Shown one piece after another: positions 7,856-64,000 of a stretch of DNA of 64,000 nt. Each line of letters opens with the position of its first letter. Positions within the stretch are counted from its first letter, which is position 1. The notes below the pieces were generated by a model. It was not told where the DNA came from. It searched no databases and worked only from the letters and a program-made list of their open reading frames with translations. A program made the translations under genes and the position numbers. This DNA comes from an uncultured Methanosarcinales archaeon (lineage in GTDB: Archaea; Nanobdellota; Nanobdellia; Woesearchaeales; GW2011-AR9). The stretch spans positions 320,001-384,000 of the forward strand of contig CAYFMJ010000001.1 in NCBI GenBank assembly GCA_964344235.1, in the 5' to 3' direction.

Positions 7856-9343
7856 ATGGTTAATTATGGTTCAAAGCTTCTAAAAGGGGCCGGTATTATT
7901 TTCTTTATGAGTTTACTGAGTGCTGGTTTGGGGTATGGAATACGAATTATTCTTGCTAAGAATTTAAGTACTGCAGATTTTGGCCTTTTTTTTGCTGTTT
8001 ATAACATAGTGTTGATGCTTGGTTGGATGAAAGGGTTTAGTTTTACGTCTGTTGTTCAAAAGTTTATACCTGGGTTTAAAGCTAAAGGAGATTATACGAA
8101 AATAAAATCAATGTTTATATTTGTCCTTATCTTTACTTCATTAACGAGCTTACTGCTTGTCATCTTAATTTACTTATTCCCGGAACACCTTATTAACAGC
8201 TACTTTAAGAGTAATGTAGCAAAGTCATTGCTTTGGATAATTACTCTTTTTTATATTATTGATGACTTCTCAAAGCTTGTTGCGGGATACTTCCTTTCTG
8301 TACATTTGCCGTTTCTTTACTCCCTGCGGGATTTATTAGTCCGATTATCCCTTTTTCTGCTTTTGTTTGTTGTTACTATTAATACTTTTTCTGTGGCCTG
8401 GCTCTATGTTGTAGCAGCAGCACTCGCACTTGTTGTTAATCTGTTACTTTTTATACGATATTTTCCTTTTCAGTATAAAACTTCAATCACAAAAGATCTA
8501 GTGCGGAAATTATTTAGCTTTAGCACTCCTCTTATTATACGGGATTTTTTTGGCGTCTTTTTGAGTAGGGTGGACAACCTTTTTCTTGTCTATTTCAGGC
8601 CTTTGACAGAAGTTGCTATCTATAACACTATTTTGCCAACGGCAGAGCTCTTATTGTTTATTTCTCGACCTTTTGCAAAGGTCTTGTTTCCCCTGTCCTC
8701 AGAATTGTGGTTTATGCAAGATAAAAGAAGGCTGAGGAGTCTTCTAGGTATAACCCACAAATATTTGCTGTTACTTTTAATTCCACTCGCACTCTTTGTT
8801 GGTTATCTATCAACTTTTATTTTAAGTCAATTTTTTGGCTCAGTGTATGTAGAAGGATCTTTTGGATTAAGGATATTAATTGTTGGAATCCTATTTTCTA
8901 GCTTGAATCTTGTGGGTTATGCTGTTCTAAAAGGCATCGGAAAGACCAAAGAAGTGGCAGTAATTCATATATTTATAAATAGTCTTAATGTTATTCTTAA
9001 TATAATCTTAATACCCTTATTTGGATCATTGAATCAAGGTTATTTTGGGGCTATAATTGCAACAACATGCAGTTTCTTTGTTGCCTTTTTACTTTTGACA
9101 TACTTCTTACATAAATTTTTGCACTATAGACTTTCTCTAGCTATCCTTTTATTTATCGTTACAAGTGGTTTTGCTTCTTTGCTTATTATGCATGTCATTG
9201 TAACACCGATTTCATCTTTGTATGTGCAATTAGCTGTTTTTATTGTTGGTTTCTCCCTGCTGTATCTCGTATTTATCTTTGTGTTGAAAATCACTTCAAA
9301 GCAAGAGATTGTTACTTTATTGAAGATGTTGAGGTCATCTTAG
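7856..9343 (+). CDS. Oligosaccharide flippase (Wzx/AglR-like, MOP superfamily)
   Basis: About 14 hydrophobic segments; IILAKNLSTADFGLF, RVDNLFL, GAIIAT patterns. Confidence 0.85.
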   Translation: MVNYGSKLLKGAGIIFFMSLLSAGLGYGIRIILAKNLSTADFGLFFAVYNIVLMLGWMKGFSFTSVVQKFIPGFKAKGDYTKIKSMFIFVLIFTSLTSLLLVILIYLFPEHLINSYFKSNVAKSLLWIITLFYIIDDFSKLVAGYFLSVHLPFLYSLRDLLVRLSLFLLLFVVTINTFSVAWLYVVAAALALVVNLLLFIRYFPFQYKTSITKDLVRKLFSFSTPLIIRDFFGVFLSRVDNLFLVYFRPLTEVAIYNTILPTAELLLFISRPFAKVLFPLSSELWFMQDKRRLRSLLGITHKYLLLLLIPLALFVGYLSTFILSQFFGSVYVEGSFGLRILIVGILFSSLNLVGYAVLKGIGKTKEVAVIHIFINSLNVILNIILIPLFGSLNQGYFGAIIATTCSFFVAFLLLTYFLHKFLHYRLSLAILLFIVTSGFASLLIMHVIVTPISSLYVQLAVFIVGFSLLYLVFIFVLKITSKQEIVTLLKMLRSS

Positions 9344-52796: not shown

Positions 52797-54227
52797 GTGA
52801 TGATGGGACGTTCTGAACTATTGAAAGAATTTGGGTTTAAGGAAGAGGTTACGGAGACGTTAGAACGCCAGTATGGAAAAACAGGCTTCCCCAAACCGCA
52901 TAAGACGTATCGTATGTATTGGGAACTGTATGACCTAAGCATGGAAGAACCATATTTTTGGATTCTTGATACATTAAAACAGAATTTTCCAATTATTGAC
53001 AAGTTGGAAGATTCGTTTGCAGCTGCTGAGAATTCTGCTTTCTTTGGAGTGACACAACAACGGTTAGGGGCTCAGCAGGATAAAGTTTCACAGTTCCTTG
53101 CAACTACAGGAAAGATGATTAAGGAGCTGTTCCAGATGGTACGGGAGTTGCGGATTATCGATGAACGGTTAGGATATTACAAACAAGTTGCTGTACAGCT
53201 GGAGAGAGATCTTAAGGCACGTGAAAAGGGAGCAGAGATTACATTAAAAGGGTTCTTTGTTGATTTAGTTCAGGGAGGGGGGAAAAGTGCTGCTTCTGTC
53301 TATGGGATGGCGAGGGAGTTAGAATTTATTACACTCCCCGATTTGTTTTTCGATGCGCCGCCATTCAGAACGAGCTCAGAGGTTGAGAAACATATTAACA
53401 GTTTAGAGAAAGATTTTAACAAGAATGTTTTACGAGTGTTACATCGGCATTTGACGCAATATATGCAGTGGAGGAAACGCACACACTCTGAGCATGTTAA
53501 TAGGAAACAATTTATGTTGAAGTATCTGGATCAACATTTTCAGATTATTAATATGTATATTACGTGGATTAAACCGTATTTACGGAATGTAAGAAATTTG
53601 TCATTGAACCAGAAAGCAATGTCCTCTGCTGATTTGATTTCTGGTTTTGAAGGGAGTATGCTCGACGTAGAATTTTTGGCCCGACGGAGGATTCCCATAG
53701 GAGATTCTGGGGCGAATGGTTGTGTTTTAGCGACGTTTCAATATAGAACACGACCGGAGATGAAAGTTGTTTCTGAAGGATATCAGCGAGGTCCAGTGCA
53801 TATTGGCGGCATGACGATGGAATTGCGTGTGTATACGTGGACCGATGAGGAAGTTGAAAATTATAAGAAGCTAAAGCAGAAAGAAACGTTGGAGCTATTT
53901 GGTGATGTTTCAGAGTCAGTACGGGGTGCTATGGAATCGTTAGGAGATGTGCTAGAGAAATATTTAGAGGAAGCGCGTGGTTTGAAGAAGGAAAAGAAAG
54001 AGGAAAAAAAAGAGACGAAACAAAAAAAAGGATTAAAAGGTTTATTTGGGGAGTTTTATCGGTCGAGACCTAAACGTGATAAAGATAAAGCTCAAAACAG
54101 TAAAGAAGCAAAGGTACTTAGCGATAAACTGAAATCTACAAATGAAGGTTTAATTAAGGGTGTAAAGTTTACTGCGTGGAATACGTATAAGAATTTTAAA
54201 AAAGCACACCGGATGATTCAGTGGTAG
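52797..54227 (+). CDS. Hypothetical protein (476 aa, helical)
   Basis: Long ORF with normal codon usage; no recognisable catalytic motif. Confidence 0.75.
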   Translation: MMMGRSELLKEFGFKEEVTETLERQYGKTGFPKPHKTYRMYWELYDLSMEEPYFWILDTLKQNFPIIDKLEDSFAAAENSAFFGVTQQRLGAQQDKVSQFLATTGKMIKELFQMVRELRIIDERLGYYKQVAVQLERDLKAREKGAEITLKGFFVDLVQGGGKSAASVYGMARELEFITLPDLFFDAPPFRTSSEVEKHINSLEKDFNKNVLRVLHRHLTQYMQWRKRTHSEHVNRKQFMLKYLDQHFQIINMYITWIKPYLRNVRNLSLNQKAMSSADLISGFEGSMLDVEFLARRRIPIGDSGANGCVLATFQYRTRPEMKVVSEGYQRGPVHIGGMTMELRVYTWTDEEVENYKKLKQKETLELFGDVSESVRGAMESLGDVLEKYLEEARGLKKEKKEEKKETKQKKGLKGLFGEFYRSRPKRDKDKAQNSKEAKVLSDKLKSTNEGLIKGVKFTAWNTYKNFKKAHRMIQW

Positions 54228-54288
54228 TGTTTTGTATATAATACAGTATATTCCCACTATTTTTATAGTTCTCGTTTCTGAAGTTGTT

Positions 54289-54987
54289 ATGGTTGATGAA
54301 TTAAAAGGCTTACCTCCGGAAGAGCGAATTAAGAAGTTACGGGAGTTAGAAGCGAAGAAGAAGAAAGAAATAGAGGAAGCTGCCCGTTTAATTCGAGAGA
54401 GTGAAGATGAATTAACTGATAGAAGAGCCTGGGAGGAGAAGGTTCCTATACCCGAAGTGGCACAGGAAGAACTTACTGGGTTAAGTGTGGGAGCGAAGGA
54501 TATTCTTAAAGTTCAAGGTAGAGTACAAGAGAAACAGGAAGTTGTTGAAGATCCTGAAGAGACAAAAGAGGCTGTTGAAAAAGAAGAGAGAAGTTTAGAG
54601 GATACGGTTGAAGCAGAGGTTGTTAGTAAAAGTAATGAGTTACAGAATGTTCAGTATGGTTTCCCCCAGGATTTAGCACATCCTCAAGCGAATGCAGAAT
54701 ATGCAATGCGTCTAAGCTATATGCCTGCAGAAGAATTACGAGATAGAGTTGAAGCGGTACGGGCTTCTGTGCAGGATAGGGGGTATATGACGCATGAGGA
54801 ACAGAATTTTGTGATGGCAGCGTATGCGGCGTCTGAAAATAAAGAAAGAGCCGTACAGGAAGGGAAATATTCGATGATAGAGGAGGCTGCACAGGCAACG
54901 TCTTTGATTGCACAGACAACCGGACGATTATTAGATCAAGCGTATCATGCACGACAAGAGGAACATAGGACGCAGTATCAGAGATGA
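54289..54987 (+). CDS. Hypothetical acidic coiled-coil protein
   Basis: LPPEERIKKLRELE N-terminus; E/K-rich. Confidence 0.7.
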   Translation: MVDELKGLPPEERIKKLRELEAKKKKEIEEAARLIRESEDELTDRRAWEEKVPIPEVAQEELTGLSVGAKDILKVQGRVQEKQEVVEDPEETKEAVEKEERSLEDTVEAEVVSKSNELQNVQYGFPQDLAHPQANAEYAMRLSYMPAEELRDRVEAVRASVQDRGYMTHEEQNFVMAAYAASENKERAVQEGKYSMIEEAAQATSLIAQTTGRLLDQAYHARQEEHRTQYQR

Positions 54988-55136
54988 ATTAGCTGCGTCC
55001 TAAATACCCTACTTCAGAGACGAGAACCCAATACTTATGTGTAGGAACCTCGTATCTTACGTCTGGCCATGCCATCAATAACTCCGTTATTTCTGTCATT
55101 GATGGCACAGACGGTTATTTAAGACACAACTCAAAT
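54966..55136. repeat. Cluster of hairpins sharing blocks with the 60.8 kb intergenic region
   Basis: TAGGACGCAG/CTGCGTCCTA (54966-55002); TGCCATCAAT/ATTGATGGCA; CCATCAATAA, ATTTCTG and CAACTCAAAT occur in the same order at 60800-60874. Confidence 0.6.
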
Positions 55137-55175
55137 GACGATAAATTTTATATACGATAAACTGTTCTTTCTCCT

Positions 55176-57302
55176 ATGGCTGATTTTGGTGATGGATATT
55201 ATATGCCGATGGACCGTGGACATGCACATGATCATGGACATCATGGTTTTCCAGGGGTTTCAGGGAAAGCAACAAGTGATGTAGGGATTTCTATCGGTGA
55301 TTTAGGAACAAGTATGGGTTTAGGTCCGGTGCCGAATGTGCAAACTGTTAAATCGCGTCTTCATCCCGGAGCGAAGAAGTTAGAGTTCGTATTTTTTGGT
55401 CGAGGAAAAGGTTCTGCTCAGGGACATACGCCAGGACAGTATGGGTTTAAGCAACGACAAGCATTAGTAGAGATTGGAAGATCAAATAAAGTTGATTTTA
55501 CAACGCACTCTGCTGTTGGCATTATGGGTTTAGCAGGGATGGATCAGCAAGGGAATTTCTCAAAAGCAAGTAAGCAGGATTCTCTATTGGAGTTAAAGCG
55601 AGCAGTTGAATTCGCTGCAGATGTGGGACAGGGAGGGCCCGTTGTTGTTCATACTGGGGAGTTTGACAGGCCAATTGTTGACGCTGAGTGGAACCAACAG
55701 GAAGGCGATCCGTACAAAGGGAAGTTTACTCGGTATGCTGATGAGGAAGGAAGAACGGAGTATAGGGTTGTTGATAGAAGAACTGGAAGACTGGTACAGT
55801 CAGCTCAGAAGAATAGAAAAGTTTCCCGGCCAGTATGGAATGTTGCTACAGAGGGAGAAGAGTATGTCGACTTTGATGGGGTGACAAAAAAGGGTGAGAA
55901 AGGAAAAAAAGTGTATTTAGATTATGAGGGAAACCGCGTACAGCCAGAGTTACGAGTTCCGAAGTTTAACAAAGATGATCAAAAATTCGAAGTGGTGCAG
56001 CTAGGGTGGGAAGATCTTGTTGAGGAAGCAAAAGAAATGACTACCCGTGCTAAAGAGGTGTGGAAAGATTGGAAAGCTGGTAGAATTAGTAATAAAGAGT
56101 TTGAAAAATCGTATTGGGCTCGATTTAGGGATGCGAAGAGTGTTAAAGATGTTAACGTCCGGGCTGAGGAAGCGTATATTATCTCAACATTAGAAACCAA
56201 TGCTGCTAGGGACAGGGGTTGGGCGTTGTATTATGGGGGGAATTTTGATGATTATATCAAAAAAATGAAGAAGTTTAAGAAAGCGCTGGCGTTTTATGAG
56301 CAATTGGAAGAAGCAACTGATGAAGAAGAGAAGTGGCAATTGAAGCGCGAAATTGGCGAGTTGCGTTTACCGAGTGGGTTGGTGCCGCCTGATTCTAAAT
56401 TTCCCTCTGAAATTTTGAGAGAGCAGATTAAAGAAGTTGATCGGCAAATGAAATATTCGCGTGAATCTTCAGCAGCACAATGGGCGCAATCAGAAGAAGC
56501 GGTGGAACAGATCAGGAATATTGAGAGTGCGGAGACGTATGCAATTAAAGAAGCGTATGATGCGTATGCACAATCAGCAATTAGTGCAATGAGACAGAGT
56601 GATGCGTTAGAGAAGAAAGGTAAGTTGAAGAAGCCGATTGCAGTTGCTCTTGAAAATTTATTCCCAGAAGCATATGGTTCACACCCTGATGAGTTAAAAA
56701 GTTTAGTGCTTGGGAGTCGGGAGAGGATGGTTGAGTTGCTGAAACAGCAAGGAATGGCTGAAGAAGCGGCTAAGAAGAAAGCCACAGCGCACATTACTGC
56801 AACATTTGATACCGGGCATCTTAACATGTGGCGGAAGTATTGGCGAGGGGATCCAAATAAAAGTATCAAAGAAAATGATAAAGCATTTGATAAATGGATG
56901 TTAGATAAAGTTGGAGAGCTAGCAAAGGATAAGATTATTGGCCACGTACATATTGATGATAATTATGGGTATCATGATGATCATCTCGCTCCGGGTGAAG
57001 GGAATACGCCGATTAAAGAGATGGTGAAAGTGTTAAAAAAGAACGGGTACAAAGGAGAATTAATTGTGGAGCCCGGTGCAGATTATTATACAGATACGGG
57101 AAATGGCTTTGCGTCACTTGCGAAGACATGGAAACATTTTGATCTACCAGTCTATGGACGAGGAGGGTTGTCTGGACAAGGAGCAACGTGGGGGAATGTG
57201 CAGTATGGTTTCTTTGGACATAATCAACCTGCATATTTCGTGTTTGGAGCATATAGCCCGTCGGAAGAATGGACGTTGTGGTCAGGAGTGCCGTTGGAGT
57301 AA
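55176..57302 (+). CDS. Xylose isomerase-like/AP endonuclease 2 TIM-barrel protein with large helical insertion
   Basis: VHTGE, ALENL, FDTGH, HVHIDDN, HLAPGEG and LIVE metal-ligand pattern, split by a ~330-aa insert. Confidence 0.8.
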   Translation: MADFGDGYYMPMDRGHAHDHGHHGFPGVSGKATSDVGISIGDLGTSMGLGPVPNVQTVKSRLHPGAKKLEFVFFGRGKGSAQGHTPGQYGFKQRQALVEIGRSNKVDFTTHSAVGIMGLAGMDQQGNFSKASKQDSLLELKRAVEFAADVGQGGPVVVHTGEFDRPIVDAEWNQQEGDPYKGKFTRYADEEGRTEYRVVDRRTGRLVQSAQKNRKVSRPVWNVATEGEEYVDFDGVTKKGEKGKKVYLDYEGNRVQPELRVPKFNKDDQKFEVVQLGWEDLVEEAKEMTTRAKEVWKDWKAGRISNKEFEKSYWARFRDAKSVKDVNVRAEEAYIISTLETNAARDRGWALYYGGNFDDYIKKMKKFKKALAFYEQLEEATDEEEKWQLKREIGELRLPSGLVPPDSKFPSEILREQIKEVDRQMKYSRESSAAQWAQSEEAVEQIRNIESAETYAIKEAYDAYAQSAISAMRQSDALEKKGKLKKPIAVALENLFPEAYGSHPDELKSLVLGSRERMVELLKQQGMAEEAAKKKATAHITATFDTGHLNMWRKYWRGDPNKSIKENDKAFDKWMLDKVGELAKDKIIGHVHIDDNYGYHDDHLAPGEGNTPIKEMVKVLKKNGYKGELIVEPGADYYTDTGNGFASLAKTWKHFDLPVYGRGGLSGQGATWGNVQYGFFGHNQPAYFVFGAYSPSEEWTLWSGVPLE

Positions 57303-57340
57303 TTGTTGCTGTATTTTTTCGACGACAAAATTGAGCGGAA

Positions 57341-57391
57341 GGTGTTATGCCCTGGGGACTTTACGTCCCCACGAGGAGCGTAGCGACGAAG
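57341..57391 (+). repeat. Junction element copy a
   Basis: GGTGTTATG, TGGGGAC-tttac-GTCCCCA hairpin, GAGCGTAGCGACGAAG. Confidence 0.75.
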
Positions 57392-57514
57392 AGTTTTTGA
57401 ACTACCGTGCATTGACACTGGCGCCGATTAACACTTACAGTTTTTAGTTTTAGTATTTCAAAGAAGGGGGAGTTCCGTTAGTTTTAGTTACACATTAAAG
57501 GGGGGACAATTTAG

Positions 57515-58276
57515 TTACTTGAAAGGTTTACTTTGTTTCCAGAACCATTCAAAATAATTTCTAAAAGAATCAGCAACTTGTTGACTTGTTATTTCAAAGG
57601 CAAAGGGCATTTCACCCTGAGGGATTGCAATGAGAACCACATCTTTGTAGATCATTACCCAAGAGGGAGATTCAATATTGAGGGGCATTCTTCTGGCTTC
57701 GCAATATTTGTAACTATTTCTGTTCTTTAAGTTTTCATTAGTTACATCAGGATGATAAAGCATTCTGCATTTGATTTTTTCTTTTGCCAAAATCTGATGG
57801 TGCTTTTTCCAATACGCATGATGAAAGCCCGGTTGTTGCGGAGGCAACCCGTACAAAACAACCTCATCTCCCTGTTTCAATTTTTGATAGCGGTTTTCGT
57901 AAGCAGTCATTAATCCTCTAAATCCCTCATACATATTAGCCTCACTTTTTTTGGCTAACTTTTGTTTAAGGATTAACTGGGGAATCATCTCTTGGATTTT
58001 CGCTTTATTTTGTTGAATCTCTTTTTCTCTAGTTTCAACATAATCCAAGAGTGTATTTGGCGGTGCTGCTTGGTAATACTTAGTTTTTTCTTTGGTCACA
58101 TAGGAAACAAGCCCTTTCTTGATTAGTTTTTCAAGAATCCTATAGATGATTGATCTATTTACTCCAGATTTTTCAAGAATAGGGCCGATTGTTGACGAAC
58201 CAAGCTCTAGCAAAGCCAAGTAAGTTCTTGTTTCACCATCAGTTAATCCTGCTTCTTGAAGGGCTGAAATGTCCAT
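57515..58276 (-). CDS. TrmB-family transcriptional regulator
   Basis: LQEAGLTDGETRTYLALLELG, winged HTH (SGVNRSIIYRILEKLIKKGLV), and a C-terminal effector domain ending FEWFW. Confidence 0.9.
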   Translation of the reverse strand: MDISALQEAGLTDGETRTYLALLELGSSTIGPILEKSGVNRSIIYRILEKLIKKGLVSYVTKEKTKYYQAAPPNTLLDYVETREKEIQQNKAKIQEMIPQLILKQKLAKKSEANMYEGFRGLMTAYENRYQKLKQGDEVVLYGLPPQQPGFHHAYWKKHHQILAKEKIKCRMLYHPDVTNENLKNRNSYKYCEARRMPLNIESPSWVMIYKDVVLIAIPQGEMPFAFEITSQQVADSFRNYFEWFWKQSKPFK

Positions 58277-58395
58277 GCTTTGTTTATGATTGGTTGTTTT
58301 ATTTAAATCTTTCTAATTAGCATACTAGTGGTGGTATGATAAAATTATTAAAGAAAGTAGTTGCTACTGTTAAATAAATAACTTAGGAATTAAAA

Positions 58396-58845
58396 ATGAC
58401 AGAAGAAAATAATGGGCTTGACGAGAGATTACTAACACAAGTACAGGCAATTAGCAGATTAGTAATTCCAGGTGTACAAACTGAATTTTGCAGGGGGGTT
58501 CCAAAGGAAGGCAGTACTAATGAATTTAGTCCAAGCACTAACATTCTTATTGAAAACTGTCTGGGTAGAACTGTTTTTGCATCATATATCCACACTCCGT
58601 ATGGTAAGAATCAATTTAGGATGTGGTTAGACAATCGTCCAAAAATGTTGGTACCCGCTAGAGATCATTACGATCGTGGAGGCAGTTCAAGAGAAGGCAG
58701 CCACTGGTTTTTTGAAGCTACTGGACTAACCGAACCAGTACAATCAATAAGAGATCTGTTGACGGATGGTTGGGAGAAAAAAGATGAATACAGCCATAGG
58801 GCAACTGCTATTCTTTACGCAAAAGGCGGGTTTTCGGATGAATAA
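58396..58845 (+). CDS. Hypothetical protein
   Basis: 149-aa ORF with AGGA SD and an upstream AT box. Confidence 0.6.
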   Translation: MTEENNGLDERLLTQVQAISRLVIPGVQTEFCRGVPKEGSTNEFSPSTNILIENCLGRTVFASYIHTPYGKNQFRMWLDNRPKMLVPARDHYDRGGSSREGSHWFFEATGLTEPVQSIRDLLTDGWEKKDEYSHRATAILYAKGGFSDE

Positions 58846-58872
58846 TCAAGATGAAACTAGGAGCTAAATAAA

Positions 58873-59415
58873 ATGGCAAAAATTGAAAGCATTGAAAGAA
58901 TACTTGTTGTTGAGGATACTGAACAACATATTCAGGCAGCTAGAGAACAACTTGGTGAGTATGAACTTACAATGGTGGGAGATTTCGAAAGATTCCTCGA
59001 CGCAGTGAAAGGTACTTGTTTTGACGCGCCGAATAATAGAATGAAGCGTAATTATAACTTTCCTGAAGATCCAAAATTTGATGCTGTACTTAGCGATATG
59101 AATTTTCCTATGAATGTAAAAGACTTGTACAGTGGTTACAATTCCCCTGGTGTTTTAGGATATGCAGTAGGGATGATCTGTTCACAAGCATCAATTCCAT
59201 TAGTAGGAATTGTGTCTGCAACAAACCACCATGAAGGATCTGTTGCAGGAAGTCTAATGTACTTGAAAGCAACAAGACACGCTGATAGAATTTTTCAAGT
59301 AGGAGATACACGAATAATGTATTTTGATGATGACTCTTTTGGCACAAGGGATCAACCTAAGAGATGGGATAAAGCATTAGAATGTTTAAATGCAGGAACC
59401 AGAAATATTGATTAG
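58873..59415 (+). CDS. Stand-alone response-regulator receiver-like protein
   Basis: ILVVED acidic pocket, DAVLSDMNFP phosphoacceptor region, VSAT; GGAG SD. Confidence 0.65.
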   Translation: MAKIESIERILVVEDTEQHIQAAREQLGEYELTMVGDFERFLDAVKGTCFDAPNNRMKRNYNFPEDPKFDAVLSDMNFPMNVKDLYSGYNSPGVLGYAVGMICSQASIPLVGIVSATNHHEGSVAGSLMYLKATRHADRIFQVGDTRIMYFDDDSFGTRDQPKRWDKALECLNAGTRNID

Positions 59416-59561
59416 AAATTGTCCCCCCTCTTTTTTTTGTTTTTAGGAACTCCCCCGTTAAAGTTTTAGTGTTAATCATAGTTTTAGTTCTTAGAAAGGC
59501 GCCAGTTAAGATTGTTTAATTTAGCGTTAGCGTAGTATCCAAAATAGGTAGTTCAAAAATT

Positions 59562-59618
59562 GGGCATATACGATGTTATGTGCCCCCGACTTCACGTCGG
59601 GGTGCGTAACGACCGAAG
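59562..59618 (+). repeat. Junction element copy b
   Basis: GGGCATATACGATGTTATGTGCCC hairpin, CCCCGAC-ttcac-GTCGGGG hairpin, GTGCGTAACGACCGAAG. Confidence 0.75.
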
Positions 59619-59693
59619 GGAGTGGAGCAAGTATTTGAGTTGCGTCATAGAAAGGGGCTTGGCATAGTTTTGGTTTTTAGAGGGGCTTAAGTT

Positions 59694-60029
59694 TTACTTT
59701 TTGAAAATGTTTACTAAAGAATCCTGAATCTCTTTGATTTTGTTTTCTTTCAAAGTGCCAATTTTTGAAGAAATGATTGAAACATCGGCAGTGAAAAGCT
59801 TGTTTGGTCTTACAAGACTTGATACTGTCAATTTTCCAGTTTGAAAATTTTCTGTTTCAAGAGGAACTGCATATTCATCGCTACGAGCAGAAGCAGTTGT
59901 TATCTGTGCAAGAATTAAATCGTCACCTGTGAGATTTGCCACCACTACTGCTGGTCGTTTCCGTGATGAACTTAGATCAGAGAAAGGAAAAAGAAGAACA
60001 ACGACATCTCCTCTTACAAGTGTTTCCAT
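59694..60029 (-). CDS. mazF: PemK/MazF-family toxin
   Basis: RGDVVVLLFPFSDLSSSRKRPAVVV, LAQITT and SLVRPNKLFT motifs. Confidence 0.9.
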   Translation of the reverse strand: METLVRGDVVVLLFPFSDLSSSRKRPAVVVANLTGDDLILAQITTASARSDEYAVPLETENFQTGKLTVSSLVRPNKLFTADVSIISSKIGTLKENKIKEIQDSLVNIFKK

Positions 60030-60271
60030 GCTTCATCCTCCTCTTTAGTAAGCCAATCTTTTGCTAAAGATTTTTCACTGGCTAAAGCTGGAAACATTTT
60101 TTCATTGAATTGTTTTAACGGTCGTAGTTCTACTTTATTATCAAAGGCTAAAATTGCTACTTTTGTTCCCTCTTTGAATCCCTCAAGTTTTCTAATGTTT
60201 TTTGGGATAGCAATTTGACCTTTCTCTGTTACAGTTGCAGTTCTCATTTCGATTAATGGCATTTTGATCAC
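60014..60271 (-). CDS. mazE: AbrB/MazE/SpoVT-family antitoxin
   Basis: TVTEKGQIAIPKNIR swapped-hairpin; C-terminal ASEKSLAKDWLTKEEDEAWKHL; overlaps the toxin start. Confidence 0.88.
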   Translation of the reverse strand: MIKMPLIEMRTATVTEKGQIAIPKNIRKLEGFKEGTKVAILAFDNKVELRPLKQFNEKMFPALASEKSLAKDWLTKEEDEAWKHL

Positions 60272-60424
60272 CTACTTAGTAATTCTTACAAGTAGGATAA
60301 GTAAGAAATATATAAATTTTTCTGTATTTATGTTGTTACTAAATGATGAATAAATCAAGGAAAGATTTATAAATGATTAGCCGTTTCTAAGACTATAATC
60401 ATTAAAATCAAGAGGTCAATAAAA

Positions 60425-60727
60425 ATGTCAGAAAATAAATTAGTATTTGCTCGTGCATATTGGATGAATAGTCCATTTGAAGAAGGACAAGCAGGATTCT
60501 TTGTAGGAGATCCAAGTAATCCATCTAAAGGATCATATGAAGGTAACAATAATTTAAGGTTTGCTGTTGCTAAAGTTGCTGAAAGAAGTTCTGAATTATC
60601 TACAACTGTTGATACAGAATTTGAAGGTCTAGCAAGAGATGGCAAAATGACTTTATTGTTGCAACCAATTGAGCAAGATACTGCTAAATACAAAAGTGTT
60701 GATGAATTAGCACGCATGTATCTTTAA
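60425..60727 (+). CDS. Hypothetical protein
   Basis: 100-aa AT-rich ORF with GAGGT SD. Confidence 0.6.
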   Translation: MSENKLVFARAYWMNSPFEEGQAGFFVGDPSNPSKGSYEGNNNLRFAVAKVAERSSELSTTVDTEFEGLARDGKMTLLLQPIEQDTAKYKSVDELARMYL

Positions 60728-60878
60728 AATTATTTTTTCTTTTTAACTTAAGCCCCTCTTTTTCTTTTTACATTTTAGTTTTTAACATAGAGCCAAGCCC
60801 CATCAATAATAGAATTTCTGCATTCAGTTTATAGTCAGTAAACAGAAGCAGAGTAAACATCAAGCAACTCAAATATTG

Positions 60879-60937
60879 CACATAACGATGTTATGTTGTG
60901 GGAGGTTCATCCTCCCAGCCGAGCGTTAGCGAGGAAG
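60879..60937 (+). repeat. Junction element copy c
   Basis: ACATAAC-gat-GTTATGT hairpin, TGGGAGG-ttcat-CCTCCCA hairpin, GAGCGTTAGCGAGGAAG. Confidence 0.75.
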
Positions 60938-61619
60938 TTTAGAAATCAGGAACAAGCTTTACCCCCGCCATTGTAGAATTTCACTGCCATACTCATCTTT
61001 TACTATTTTTTAGTAATATTTTTAAAGAAAGAGGTTTCTCATACTATTTATGCAACAATTACTAACATACAGAGAATTTCCATTTGATCATTCATTATTT
61101 TTGGATAAAGGTATTAATGCAGGAGATTTGCATGTTACTCTTTATGATGAAATGGGTTGTACTCAAGATGGTGACCAAAAGTTAAGTGAAGTAAATAGAA
61201 GAGTTCATAATGCTGCTGTAAGAAGTTTAGTTGGTAAATTTGCTGGTGATTTAGGACAAAGAGTTTCTTTTGGTGTTTCTAGATTTTTAAAAAAAAGTAA
61301 ACGTGCTAGTCCTGATTATTCATTAAGTGAAGTTGCAGATGTTCTTGTTGGAGCAGGAGCGTATGAATCAAGAGAAGCAGCATTAGAACATTTACCTGAA
61401 TTTTTAGGAACCTCTTTAAGGACTGATGGAAAACGAAAATATGCTAACTCAATGTGGACGGGAGTACAAACTAGTTTAGATATTGAAGTAAAAGATGAGT
61501 GGCATTGGTTTGGAAGAATAGATTCTGATAGTGGTGAACAGAAGGTATATTTACATAAGCAAAAATAATTTTATGGTGGGGGTTATTCAAGTTCTACGTC
61601 CTAATTCCTGATCTCTAAA
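60938..61619. mobile_element. Module 3: single ORF enclosed by two nested inverted-repeat blocks
   Basis: 60938-952/61605-619 (14 of 15 match) and 60961-971/61573-583 (10 of 11 match). Confidence 0.45.
61050..61568 (+). CDS. Hypothetical protein
   Basis: 172-aa AT-rich ORF; no recognisable family. Confidence 0.65.
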   Translation: MQQLLTYREFPFDHSLFLDKGINAGDLHVTLYDEMGCTQDGDQKLSEVNRRVHNAAVRSLVGKFAGDLGQRVSFGVSRFLKKSKRASPDYSLSEVADVLVGAGAYESREAALEHLPEFLGTSLRTDGKRKYANSMWTGVQTSLDIEVKDEWHWFGRIDSDSGEQKVYLHKQK

Positions 61620-61809
61620 TTCAACATACGGACTACTTAAGTGCACTTTGGGCTTAAGTAGTGAAATTCTTTGAATTCAAAGCCTCTACTCAATCCCATA
61701 ACGCAAAAAACTGTTACTACTTTGCATGGAAATGTCTCACTACCCACTCGACAACCACGGGTAGAGTATATAAACGAGTTTCTTCACTAAGAATGTCGAG
61801 GTGATAGAA

Positions 61810-61935
61810 ATGAAAATGAAATTATTTCGGCGCGGTAAGTTGGTTGGTTTAGTGACTCCTAGTTTTTATATGGGGGAAGTGGAAAAAGAACGATTGATTT
61901 GGGATGATATTGATTTACCGTATCTTGAGGCGTGA
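61810..61935 (+). CDS. Small hypothetical protein (41 aa)
   Basis: Hand-translated MKMKLFRRGKLVGLVTPSFYMGEVEKERLIWDDIDLPYLEA. GAGGTGA SD at 61798-61804 and TATATAAA at 61767-61774. Confidence 0.5.
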   Translation: MKMKLFRRGKLVGLVTPSFYMGEVEKERLIWDDIDLPYLEA

Positions 61936-61972
61936 GTAAGATTTATAACCTCTTATTCTTTTCTTTTTATTG

Positions 61973-62536
61973 ATGAAAAAGAAGGTGACGAAGAGAACAG
62001 TTCGTAGGAAAGTTGTGAAGCGTAAGCCTGCTGCAAAAAGAGCTACGAGAAGAAAGAAAGTTGTTAGGAAACCGGTTCGGAAAAAGACAGTGAAGCGATC
62101 TGTTAAAAGAAAGCCCGTAAAGAAGAGAGCTGTGAAACGAAAAGTTCTTCACAAAAAACCGCCACAGAAAAGACGTGCGAGAGGATATATTCCGTTCGAT
62201 GTTCTTGTCGATAAATTACAGCATTCTAAGAAGAAACAGAGTGTGCTTGATGTGACTGATTATTCTAAAGCCGTGAAGACTGTAAAGATGAAAGAATCGA
62301 AGGATTACATCCCAGTTTCACAGTTAGCAAAGCGGTTTGAGAAGAAACGAACACCAGAGTCGTATCGAAAGGAAATTAAGAAAAAGATGCGGAAAGGTTT
62401 ATTGCATCGGATTAAAGATAAAGTGAAAAGAAAGAAGCCAGTTAAACGGCGAGTTGTGAAAAAGAAGAAAACTGTTTCCAAAAGAAAATCTGTTAAGGGA
62501 AAAGTAACGAAGAAAAAACCACGTAAGAAAAGATAA
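61973..62536 (+). CDS. Lys/Arg-rich basic protein (histone H1/HC2-like low-complexity tails)
   Basis: K/R/V repeats (KRxVxRK) at both ends; central repeated YIP(F/V) segments. Confidence 0.6.
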   Translation: MKKKVTKRTVRRKVVKRKPAAKRATRRKKVVRKPVRKKTVKRSVKRKPVKKRAVKRKVLHKKPPQKRRARGYIPFDVLVDKLQHSKKKQSVLDVTDYSKAVKTVKMKESKDYIPVSQLAKRFEKKRTPESYRKEIKKKMRKGLLHRIKDKVKRKKPVKRRVVKKKKTVSKRKSVKGKVTKKKPRKKR

Positions 62537-62682
62537 TGCTCCCGCGAGGACTTTCATTCACGTTTGTGATTTTGAACCCCGGATTTCTAGGTCCGCAACC
62601 TAGCGTCCTATTTGCACTCTTTGAGAGATCCATGCTAGACGATGGGAGCACTAACGGTTCGAGAAGGAGTTATTTTAAAAAT

Positions 62683-63468
62683 TTATTGGCGCTTCGCAAT
62701 ATCGGCCCCACCAGCAGGTAAGAATTTAATGATATCATTTAAGTCTCCACCTTTCAATTTTGCTTTAATCTTTTTTGCTAATGCGGATTTTTTATTTCTT
62801 CCTGGAATGACAACGATGTAATTCTTTGTTTTTGTTTTAATTGCATTTAGCGGTCCTCCAATAATTTCTTCGTTTAATAGACCAATAGTGTATTGGGCTT
62901 TTGGGTGGAAGTATTGCGTTTTTCCATACACCATGAATGCGCCTTTAGGAAGATTTTCTCCGGCTTGCGCTTCTTTCGTCACCTGTTCTGGTTTTACATA
63001 GAAAACGTCCGCAGTGGTATGGCCGAGTTTCCATGCTCTTGAATATGCTGCAACAGCTTGCGCGGCTTCCTGAATTGTTGTTTCAGTTGCTGCTTGTCCG
63101 TTTTTGATAATGAAGAAGGGGGAACCTGCCATGTCGGTGTGTAGGACTAGGTCGTCTTTCTCCATATGTTTTTTTACGATGATTTCGTTTGATGTTGCGT
63201 CTTTTCCTCCAATACAAAGAAAATCTTCAGAAGAGATAAACCAATGAAATTTTTCATACCACTCTTGTTTTCTCTGACGCTTCGCTTCCTTCTTCTCTTC
63301 CTCTTCCCAGAAAGTTGATTCTTGCTGTTTGAGAGTTTTAAGCTTATGTTGGCTGTCTCGCAGTGCTTTCTGTGCTCCTTCAAGTTTCTTTCTCGCTTTT
63401 TTTGCAAGGTTGAAGTATGTGCCAGCATTTTCATCTACTGATTTTGTGAGGTCGAATTCTATTTGCAT
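62683..63468 (-). CDS. NFACT-R (DUF814) domain protein, Rqc2/NEMF C-terminal-like
   Basis: ENAGTYFNLAKK, WYEKFHWFISS, GGKDATSNE, HTDMAGSPF and YSRAWK motifs. Start set at MQIEFD. Confidence 0.9.
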   Translation of the reverse strand: MQIEFDLTKSVDENAGTYFNLAKKARKKLEGAQKALRDSQHKLKTLKQQESTFWEEEEKKEAKRQRKQEWYEKFHWFISSEDFLCIGGKDATSNEIIVKKHMEKDDLVLHTDMAGSPFFIIKNGQAATETTIQEAAQAVAAYSRAWKLGHTTADVFYVKPEQVTKEAQAGENLPKGAFMVYGKTQYFHPKAQYTIGLLNEEIIGGPLNAIKTKTKNYIVVIPGRNKKSALAKKIKAKLKGGDLNDIIKFLPAGGADIAKRQ

Positions 63469-63519
63469 GGGTGTAGGAAGAAGGGAATGCTTATAAAAAT
63501 AGTGCTGAATGACTCGTAG

Positions 63520-63831
63520 ATGGAGAAACTGGCTTTCCCAAAACCGCAAATTCATGTATTTGTTTGTGTTAACGATAGGTCTCATAAGTTGGGTGGTGCG
63601 ACGCCAAGTTGTGGACCAACTGTCACTGCAGAAATGGTGCGAGAGGTTAAGCAATGGGTGTTATCCCAAGGTCTGGTGGGAAAAGTGTACGTGACGAAAG
63701 CAAGCTGTTTAGGGTTTTGTAATCCAGATGGAGGAGTGGCGGTGGTCTATCCTTCTGGTGATTTTTTTAAGGGTATTAGAAGTGTTGATGATTTGAAGAA
63801 GATAATTATGAAGGGTCTTAACAATTTCTAA
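63520..63831 (+). CDS. Thioredoxin-like [2Fe-2S] ferredoxin
   Basis: HVFVCVN...SC...KASCLGFC...AVVYP motif. Confidence 0.88.
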   Translation: MEKLAFPKPQIHVFVCVNDRSHKLGGATPSCGPTVTAEMVREVKQWVLSQGLVGKVYVTKASCLGFCNPDGGVAVVYPSGDFFKGIRSVDDLKKIIMKGLNNF

Positions 63832-63976
63832 TGTTTTCGAGAATGAGGGATTTTTCGGTACAAATTTGTTCTGCATCAAAGAGAATAACTTTAGGTGTGA
63901 TTTTGACTTGACGGATCGCTCCTGAGACGGCAGCGTTGTAGTTTACTTGACCGAGATATGTTCCTGCTTTAGTCAT
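63818..63976 (-). CDS. Small hypothetical protein (52 aa)
   Basis: Hand-translated MTKAGTYLGQVNYNAAVSGAIRQVKITPKVILFDAEQICTEKSLILENIRNC; converges on the ferredoxin. Confidence 0.35.
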   Translation of the reverse strand: MTKAGTYLGQVNYNAAVSGAIRQVKITPKVILFDAEQICTEKSLILENIRNC

Positions 63977-64000
63977 TTTAGCATTATTTAATTCGAAAGT

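Follow-up and report, generated by a model that had tools for sequence, protein, structure and literature searches.

The window considered here comprises 64,000 nucleotides of a Woesearchaeales genome (GW2011-AR9; assembly GCA_964344235.1, contig CAYFMJ010000001.1, positions 320,001 to 384,000 of the forward strand), and its region 57341-61619 is probably an array of three gene cassettes belonging to an integron-like system that is specific to one family and has a central crossover in a palindrome carried by each cassette. Repeats at the cassette ends, covarying hairpins at the junctions, a family-wide distribution of the sites, their linkage to xer genes, an empty site, and the recurrence of cassettes in other contexts and genera are all observed. 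In the model that we favour, the two ends of an integrated cassette would be the halves of its own imperfect palindrome of 100-170 nt. In a free, circular cassette, these halves would be adjacent around a single core and form a foldable site of about 300 nt with three hairpins at the end of a long bulged stem. A Xer recombinase of a paralogue group designated A would recombine the palindromic cores, and crossover at the site centre with a like chromosomal site would integrate the cassette and leave one half at each end, visible as nested mirror blocks. The xer gene is located in other arrays, directly downstream of the last cassette, co-oriented and in an operon with nre. The array in the window would be a secondary, recombinase-less one, similar to the clusters of attC sites lacking integrases (CALINs), located behind a conserved core gene and presumably served in trans.

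The region is composed of junction a, module 1, junction b, module 2, junction c, and module 3, the order given in an initial annotation of the window and reproduced in the sequence. Module or cassette 1 is bounded by a left arm at 57394-57512 and a right arm at 59416-59559 (all arms and sites are given for the + strand), which share five collinear exact inverted blocks of 13, 9, 10, 11, and 14 nt, with an additional 7-mer at the tip. The blocks of the left arm are located at 57394-57406, 57417-57425, 57426-57435, 57466-57476, and 57499-57512, and those of the right arm, in the same order, at 59547-59559, 59498-59506, 59468-59477, 59446-59456, and 59416-59429. Cassette 2, with arms at 59632-59693 and 60745-60875, has four such blocks of 9, 12, 10, and 15 nt (59575-59583/60878-60886, 59632-59643/60864-60875, 59654-59663/60792-60801, and 59679-59693/60745-60759). 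The collinear block totals are 57 nt for module 1 and 37 nt for module 2, compared to shuffle means of 3.4 and 1.6 nt, and these totals were matched in 0 of 1000 dinucleotide-preserving shuffles. The left arm of cassette 3 (60938-60972) is imperfect; it matches the right arm (61574-61619) over 15 nt at 93% (60938-60952/61605-61619) and over 10 nt at 90% (60963-60972/61574-61583). By exact blocks this is not significant (165 of 1000 shuffles), but by alignment score it is (19 compared to 11.4 ± 2.0; 6 of 2000 shuffles). The mirror-ordered inverted blocks described in the initial annotation are thus upheld for modules 1 and 2, where they exceed the shuffled controls, and more weakly for module 3, where significance is reached by alignment score only. 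Its statement that the inner blocks lie close to the stop codons of the cargo genes also holds, the distance being 1-18 nt.

The outermost block of every arm abuts a conserved junction core, and the mirror relation reaches into this core, where GTTATGTGC at 59575 pairs with GCACATAAC at 60878. A module can be written as GTTAWG - H1 - H2 - left arm - genes - right arm - CWTAAC, with H1 and H2 representing two hairpins, and neighbouring modules are joined via GAT; each junction therefore combines the right arm of a cassette with the left arm of the one that follows. A further motif, TAGTTTTAG(T), is found on the + strand in left as well as right arms (57440-57500, 59460-59500, 59663-59680, 60770-60785) and in arms of other genomes, and is therefore a direct repeat rather than part of the mirror repeats.

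In a correction to the initial annotation, conservation is seen in the junction, which consists of a dif-like palindrome and hairpins. The site of about 75 nt consists of the palindrome RCWTAAC-GAT-GTTAWG preceded by AAATT, the hairpins H1 and H2, and a final GAAGT. H1 is a covarying 7-bp GC hairpin with a 5-nt loop (TTYAY), and H2 is a small variable hairpin, often with a C-GTA-G loop. At the three junctions of the window the spacing is strict: GTTATG is followed after 3 nt by the GC-rich stem, the TTYAY loop, and the return stem of H1 (57353-57371, 59584-59602, and 60899-60917), and then by a CGTAG-containing stretch ending in GAAG or GCAAG. At junctions b and c, GTTATG is preceded by its own complement, which results in the palindromes CATAT-ACGAT-GTTATG and CATAAC-GAT-GTTATG. 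A covariance model of core plus H1, designated R1, assigned 48 bits to the right half of site A (57344-57393), which comprises GTTATG (57344-57349), H1, a CGTAG-type mini-hairpin as H2, and GAAG; the left half-site (57320-57343) is degenerate compared to the family consensus upstream of GTTAWG (aaaaATT.aaCaTAACGAT), keeping AAAATTGAGC without the CWTAAC-GAT part. Site B (59560-59631, 59.9 bits) contains the palindromic core GGGCATAT-ACGAT-GTTATGTGCCC (59562-59583), H1, and H2 with GCAAG (59603-59631), and site C (60876-60937, 55.9 bits) the core CACATAAC-GAT-GTTATG (60879-60895), H1, and H2 with GAAG (60918-60937). The core forms a conserved 7-3-7 palindrome, of which the outer left arm (AAATTRRR) is well kept and the right arm varies. 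An alternative reading is two arms flanking ACGATGT, a centre of 7 nt.

Among 59 model-found sites, 99.5% of the 413 cells of H1 are paired, all seven pairs covary, and only two G-T pairs occur, a scarcity that has to be read with the caveat that the covariance model was trained on Watson-Crick stems. Since a structured RNA that varies so much normally has many wobble pairs, the covariation with near-absent G-T pairs points to a constraint on H1 at the level of DNA rather than RNA. A role of the junction elements as small structured RNAs or as RNA-level regulatory signals, with the arms pairing in transcripts, is very unlikely. The hairpins do covary and fold better than shuffled sequences (z about -2 to -2.5), as would be expected of RNA elements, but the two G-U pairs among the 413 cells argue against it, as do the missing Rfam family (a scan of 56800-62200 with E values up to 5 gave two chance-level matches only), the linkage of the elements to a recombinase gene, and the distance of 0.7-2.2 kb between pairing partners across divergently transcribed genes, so that no single transcript would span them with sense genes in between. 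The idea of a tRNA or split tRNA was also considered, and no tRNA was found in the window.

The cassette-borne palindrome is supported by a comparison of arms from 34 cassettes of nine arrays in seven genomes. Cognate arms share a median of 37 nt in collinear exact inverted blocks, compared to 8 nt for 291 non-cognate pairs from the same arrays (Mann-Whitney p = 1.4e-16), and two or more blocks are present in 28 of the 34 cognate pairs, in line with the earlier proposal of a cassette system with module-specific ends rather than one insertion sequence. When the ends of a cassette are joined (320-nt junction, DNA parameters), the mean predicted folding energy is -51.7 kcal/mol compared to -29.9 for the actual hybrid junctions, the joined form being the more stable one in 33 of 35 cassettes. 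For all three cassettes of the window, the predicted fold is a long bulged stem with a multi-branch loop carrying three hairpins (CWTAAC-GAT-GTTAWG, H1, and H2). These energies restate the complementarity of the arms in energetic terms, and the folded form itself is a predicted one. Giant attC-like foldable ends, as initially proposed, are thus supported by prediction, whereas formation of the proposed panhandle in the chromosome is not required: palindrome halves split by a central crossover are the best explanation of the arms. Strict covariation, C-GTA-G mini-hairpins, foldback inserts (see below), and the length of the arms are pointers to folding; duplex DNA, a cruciform, and a folded single strand are all possible substrates. 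A more specific proposal, to which we would give somewhat less than an even chance, is structure-specific capture run by Xer: cassette circles, possibly single-stranded, would adopt the fold of about 300 nt, a dedicated XerA paralogue co-expressed with Nre would exchange strands at the apical palindrome, and integration would split the stem.

The site type is a trait of the family. The genome studied here contains nine strict copies, on contig C1, which includes the window, and on contigs C3, C9, and C26. R1 matches were obtained in 37 of 60 family genomes, distributed over many genera; outside the family, a single genome out of 149 from other families of the order gave matches, and 41 other families sampled among the relatives gave none. 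The matches occur in co-oriented rows with a spacing of 0.3-2 kb, and arrays reach 12 or more co-oriented sites (12 in 11.5 kb in genome G010; 10 or more on one contig of G018). All 59 sites, which originate from 21 sources, are co-oriented within their own arrays, and because of this the flipping of modules that had been suggested for the window finds no support.

The window encodes no recombinase, as stated in the initial annotation and borne out by the gene search. Eleven tyrosine-recombinase matches were found in the 1.19-Mb genome, and the best one (C3:18885-19700) is encoded on the same strand as a sister array of contig C3, directly downstream of it, and overlaps the start of an nre gene. 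A second xer gene (C15:212-1063) is located at the start of its contig, preceded by the end of a cassette arm and a degenerate site. Both enzymes are XerA-like according to NCBIfam, and the XerA model NF040815 (210-252 bits, cut-off 220) is the best family for all full-length copies. For thirteen recombinases of 263-289 amino acids (aa) from this genome and its relatives, the integron integrase model TIGR02249 gave 62-205 bits (cut-off 265), and in those cases in which the match consisted of two stretches, the IntI-specific profile positions of about 183-233 remained unmatched, which speaks against the IntI-type enzyme considered initially. An HUH nuclease, the other candidate then named, is also disfavoured, as PF01797 for HUH/Y1 transposases had 0 matches in the 96%-complete genome whereas controls responded. 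Two Xer paralogue groups are present in the family, with 46-62% (group A) and 33-42% (group B) identity to the C3 protein. Downstream of array sites, at a distance of at most 10 kb and in the same orientation, a group-A gene is present in 13 genomes, each from a different genus (G000, the present genome, with its C3 array, G004, G007, G010, G020, G021, G023, G038, G040, G050, G056, G057, and G059), while chance placement of this kind is expected in well under 1% of genomes; by the same measure, no group-B gene in the family genomes examined is array-linked. In G000-C3, G010, G050, and G038, xer follows the last cassette on the same strand, and in G038 the array-linked copy is the only full-length Xer. 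In many further genomes the group-A gene is found 0.1-2.4 kb from a contig start, as expected if assemblies break inside arrays. From this gene context, the array enzyme is likely a group-A XerA-like tyrosine recombinase. Either group, or neither, may represent the housekeeping enzyme.

Several further recombinases are present in the genome. There are three serine recombinases, on contigs C5, C19, and C28. Further tyrosine-recombinase matches are located at C1:402323-404605, C4:2751-3506 and 7978-8514, C3:2764-3417, and C5:10577-11380; several are short proteins (175-267 aa) whose similarity to the Xer models is mainly in the C-terminal, catalytic region and which belong neither to group A nor to group B.

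Signs of cassette movement come from the comparison of loci. G017 and G044 have a single palindromic site directly upstream of group-A xer and no cassettes (e.g. GCATAAC-AGA-GTATATGC), and at the occupied loci of G010, G050, and G038 the last cassette ends with ATTRRRCWTAAC, followed by 3 nt (NNN) and TTATAWG; as far as these sequences go, this is the picture of an empty and an occupied site. The C3 locus of the present genome and that of G050 have in common an upstream gene for a 389-aa protein (58% identity) and the downstream xer-nre pair, and the cassettes in between are unrelated. One cassette of G010 is present twice (93% identity over 919 nt) between different neighbours, the homology starting within GCATAACGAT and stopping at GTTA of the next site, and cassette pairs in G038, G017, and C26/C9 show the same limits; the exchange point is therefore located within about 14 nt centred on GAT. 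Cassettes are also common to different genera (C26 and G058, 89% over 840 nt; C9 and G018, 84% nucleotide identity), whereas for a core protein the identity between these genomes is no more than 58-59%, which argues for horizontal transfer. At some sites, i.e. in C26 and at the terminal site of G010, a foldback insert of about 70-100 nt takes the place of GAT, and such small foldback elements seem to target the site centre. They are located at about 175-285 on the reverse strand of L014 (contig C26) and at G010:C2:77585-77683 (L033/L052), with the terminal inverted repeats GGAATTATGCG/CGCATAATTCC in C26 and TCTTTAT/ATAAAGA in G010. A right-arm end, CCGAGTAATAATTC(T/A)(G/A)C(A/T)TAAC, is common to five genera with differing upstream sequences (G010 L033 10138, G038 L037 reverse 6049, G017 L038 reverse 6540, G044 L036 reverse 10818, and G050 L035 6456); this sequence possibly represents a cassette end of wide distribution or a shared primary half-site.

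Transposons with terminal inverted repeats (TIRs) and miniature inverted-repeat transposable elements (MITEs) are moved by a transposase, insert in either orientation, and create target-site duplications at unrelated targets. An explanation of the cassettes as non-autonomous cargo transposons, with long TIRs tipped by GTTAWG...CWTAAC, a transposase acting in trans, and insertion into the 3-nt GAT at the end of an earlier copy, is unlikely in our view. It would account for the long inverted ends with conserved tips and for GAT on both sides of the cassettes, in keeping with a duplication of 3 nt, and repeated insertion into a duplicated 3-nt target would give tandem rows with one GAT between neighbours. 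It conflicts with the fixed orientation of the sites in every array, the co-oriented xer beside arrays in 13 genera, and the empty site upstream of xer, which already has both tip-like half-sites around 3 nt although an unoccupied target should not. In addition, no transposase is encoded in the cassettes or was seen to track the arrays, and H1-H2 is located on the left arm alone, so that the two ends are not equivalent.

Several points weigh against a cassette system with a central Xer crossover. Xer catalysis, circular intermediates, and folding are steps that we infer from sequence comparison. The core palindrome has a 7-3-7 structure, compared to 11-6-11 for the textbook dif site, and a Xer reaction on duplex DNA alone leaves the complementarity of the arms over more than 100 nt unexplained. 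A strand-specific wobble signal of single-strand folding (G-T compared to A-C mismatches in the arms) was not found; the 2:1 wobble excess in the arms occurs in non-cognate pairs as well and is therefore compositional. Many genomes contain two XerA-like paralogue groups that both score around the XerA cut-off, and the assignment of the enzyme therefore rests on gene linkage only. In both cross-genus cassette pairs, H1-H2 differ by whole-stem swaps while the body and the first arm block are conserved, and one central crossover fails to explain swaps between homologous cassettes; together with the foldback inserts at GAT, they make the hairpin modules seem to be separately exchanged.

The remaining objections concern the array of the window itself. 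It extends slightly beyond 61619, with a terminal left half-site AAATTCAACATAC at 61617-61629 forming the end of the right arm of cassette 3 (61574-61629), a hairpin with a 9-bp stem (CTACTTAAG / CTTAAGTAG) at 61633-61661 in place of the next GTTAWG-H1, and an array-end block of 63 nt at 61659-61721. Both end sites are degenerate, the left one being without CWTAAC-GAT and the right one reading AAATTCAACATAC-GGA (CATAC-GGA) before the unrelated hairpin, and the array may for this reason be a fossil. Moreover, contigs from several other runs of the same project agree with 53694-64000 at 99.8-100% identity and span all junctions and both repeats of the array end, so that the assembly, for which the initial annotation had left support from reads to be sought, is sound at the contig level and the array is stable in that population and on that time scale. 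An assembly chimaera at the 63-nt and 65-nt repeats was considered and, as far as the contigs show, is ruled out by the other assemblies that span both identically. Against this background it is conceivable, though quite unlikely, that the arrays were built long ago by site-specific recombination and are now immobile, arms and hairpins being kept, for example, as bidirectional terminators or insulators. The invariance across samples and the degenerate end sites would fit, as would the inner blocks with C-runs and T-runs, which abut the stop codons and resemble archaeal oligo-T terminators. However, the cross-genus cassettes with 84-89% identity and the one duplicated at 93% indicate fairly recent movement, and strict Watson-Crick covariation of H1 in 59 sites together with cassette-specific complementarity over 100 nt and more exceeds what terminators need.

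The 63-nt block is 100% identical to C3:19848-19786, located just upstream of the xer promoter, which suggests, as judged from this identity, that an array-end stretch was copied to the window locus. A block of 65 nt at 61742-61806 is 100% identical to C8:1911-1975, a promoter region, and the two adjacent blocks look like a recent patchwork at the array end. A promoter box, CACTCGACAACC, is found at 61745-61774, 10-11 nt upstream of a TATA element, and the box type YACT-N-GACAAC precedes the array-linked xer-nre operon in C3, C15, G017, G044, and G010 (L050, L051, L052). No array was found behind the orthologous core gene in 8 relatives and in 60 metagenome loci, and the array of the window is therefore lineage-specific and secondary. 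An exact-pattern scan of metagenome contigs for its left boundary gave 0 matches, and exact-protein look-ups of two cargo proteins returned the same arrangement only, in samples of the same study.

The system can be compared to several known ones. The integron integrase is a tyrosine recombinase with an IntI-specific additional domain around patch III, and its gene is divergent from the array, with attI and the promoter Pc in between. The attC site is a compact imperfect hairpin of 57-141 nt (R''-L''...L'-R') at the 3' end of the cassette, with crossover in R' at the base of the stem. The arrays described here resemble sedentary integrons and CALINs in their co-oriented cassette rows beside a tyrosine recombinase, secondary arrays without integrase, sites that are conserved in structure and variable in sequence with AAC/GTT triplets in the crossover region, ORFan and toxin-antitoxin cargo, and cassettes common to distant hosts. 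As in integrons, unrelated cassettes vary between genomes at one locus, and an empty site as well as duplicated and cross-genus cassettes occur. Unlike integrons, the recombinase is XerA-like, about 270-290 aa in length, and without the IntI-specific domain, its gene is downstream, co-oriented, and in an operon with nre, the foldable site of about 300 nt is split with one half at each end of the integrated cassette, the conserved boxes are 3 nt apart at the apex and not at the base, and the cassettes are often multi-gene, contain genes in both orientations, and have their own promoters.

It is very unlikely that the region is an ordinary integron remnant with attC junctions and an IntI acting in trans or lost. 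Archaeal integrons with true IntI and attC and CALINs within this phylum, namely in Woesearchaeales and Pacearchaeales, have been reported (Ghaly et al. 2022, PMC9668308), and the co-orientation, the variable sites of conserved structure, the cargo, and the triplets of the attC R boxes retained in the core would all be in keeping with a CALIN. Yet no recombinase tested reaches the IntI cut-off or matches the IntI-specific region, the foldable site is no compact hairpin behind each open reading frame (ORF), RCWTAAC and GTTAWG face each other across 3 nt at the apex of the predicted fold, and the recombinase gene is not divergent from the array. A canonical attC, parsed by hand, was rejected with the boxes in the wrong relative position.

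The dif core consists of two inverted 11-bp arms around a 6-8-bp centre, and in some bacteria the site of XerS or XerH lies beside the xer gene. Integrative mobile elements exploiting Xer (IMEX) include the CTX and TLC phages and the gonococcal island, the attP of CTX phage being a folded single strand recombined by Xer. The cassette system of the Woesearchaeales family shares with Xer/dif and IMEX the Xer-family recombinase, a palindromic core around a short centre, and elements stacked in tandem at one site, and with XerS and XerH the location of the site beside xer. Unlike IMEX, the elements are cassettes of 0.3-4 kb without replication or phage genes, and unlike dif (for the archaeal XerA/dif system, see PMC2958812), the core is accompanied by H1, H2, and cassette-specific arms of 100-170 nt. 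IMEX integrate at the site of chromosome dimer resolution, and the single xer-proximal site in G017 and G044 could be dif. The dif (pdif) modules of Acinetobacter are plasmid-borne and bacterial and have 28-bp flanking sites in alternating (inverted) orientation (PMC6449649, PMC13141974). Like the cassettes, they are discrete accessory modules including toxin-antitoxin pairs, bounded by Xer-type sites, shuffled between replicons, and without a recombinase of their own; unlike them, the sites of the cassettes are all co-oriented, with the long arms inverted instead, and the arrays are chromosomal and archaeal. In function, the system is nearest to the sedentary integron; with respect to enzyme and core, Xer/dif and the elements exploiting it are closer. 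Full-text literature searches returned no description of Xer-linked cassette arrays with split foldable sites, in agreement with the earlier suggestion of a candidate undescribed cassette system.

The array contains eight small genes in three groups, located between the gene for a 708-aa core protein (55176-57302, + strand) and an NFACT gene (62683-63654), and its GC content is 0.33-0.37 compared to about 0.40 in the remaining window. The core gene, which forms the left chromosomal flank, encodes a protein with a xylose-isomerase-like TIM barrel domain (PF01261) and is single-copy in 57 of 60 family genomes. The groups consist of a TrmB-family regulator with two ORFans, mazEF with one ORFan, and a single ORFan. 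Cassette 1 carries the genes for the regulator (253 aa, 57515-58276, - strand; PF01978, E = 4e-17), a 149-aa ORF without family match in Pfam (58396-58845, + strand), and a 180-aa ORF (58873-59415, + strand). In cassette 2, mazF (59694-60029) and mazE (60014-60271), both on the - strand, form a toxin-antitoxin pair (PF02452 / PF04014) and are followed by a 100-aa ORF without Pfam family (60425-60727, + strand); cassette 3 carries a 172-aa ORF, also without family match (61050-61568, + strand). A toxin-antitoxin pair, a regulator, and ORFans are cargo typical of sedentary arrays. The initial identification of TrmB, mazEF, and ORFans agrees with Pfam, whereas the receiver domain assigned to the 180-aa protein does not: this ORF had no match in Pfam, PADLOC, or a PDB sequence search, and a receiver-like fold is a lead only, from a language-model atlas. 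Its neighbours in this atlas are hypothetical proteins, mostly of the candidate phyla radiation (Minisyncoccota), and one cluster labelled as response regulator, which hints that such cargo is possibly common to other ultra-small organisms. The TrmB-like regulator of the window is 30% identical over its full length to one in the C3 array (C3:19985-20719). Full-length TrmB-like regulators are recurrent cargo of different arrays, the protein of C3 and that of G050:C2 (L035 9329-10063) sharing 24% identity.

Integrons are the best-known gene-capture devices of bacteria, and their rise from Xer-like recombinases as well as the origin of attC and of the cassettes are open questions. The system described here is a natural comparison for the origin of integrons, as its cassette arrays appear to be run by a Xer-type enzyme that has no integron domain, and their sites, conserved in structure and variable in sequence, are apparently cut at the apex and not at the base. 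If capture is structure-specific as outlined above, the system would parallel the bacterial integron as an independent or ancestral counterpart and, after CTX phage, represent a second case of Xer acting on folded DNA. The idea is directly testable with one purified protein and oligonucleotides. The system could also account for some of the 'integrase-less' arrays reported in archaea, and it would explain how accessory genes are exchanged across genera in very small, host-dependent DPANN archaea.

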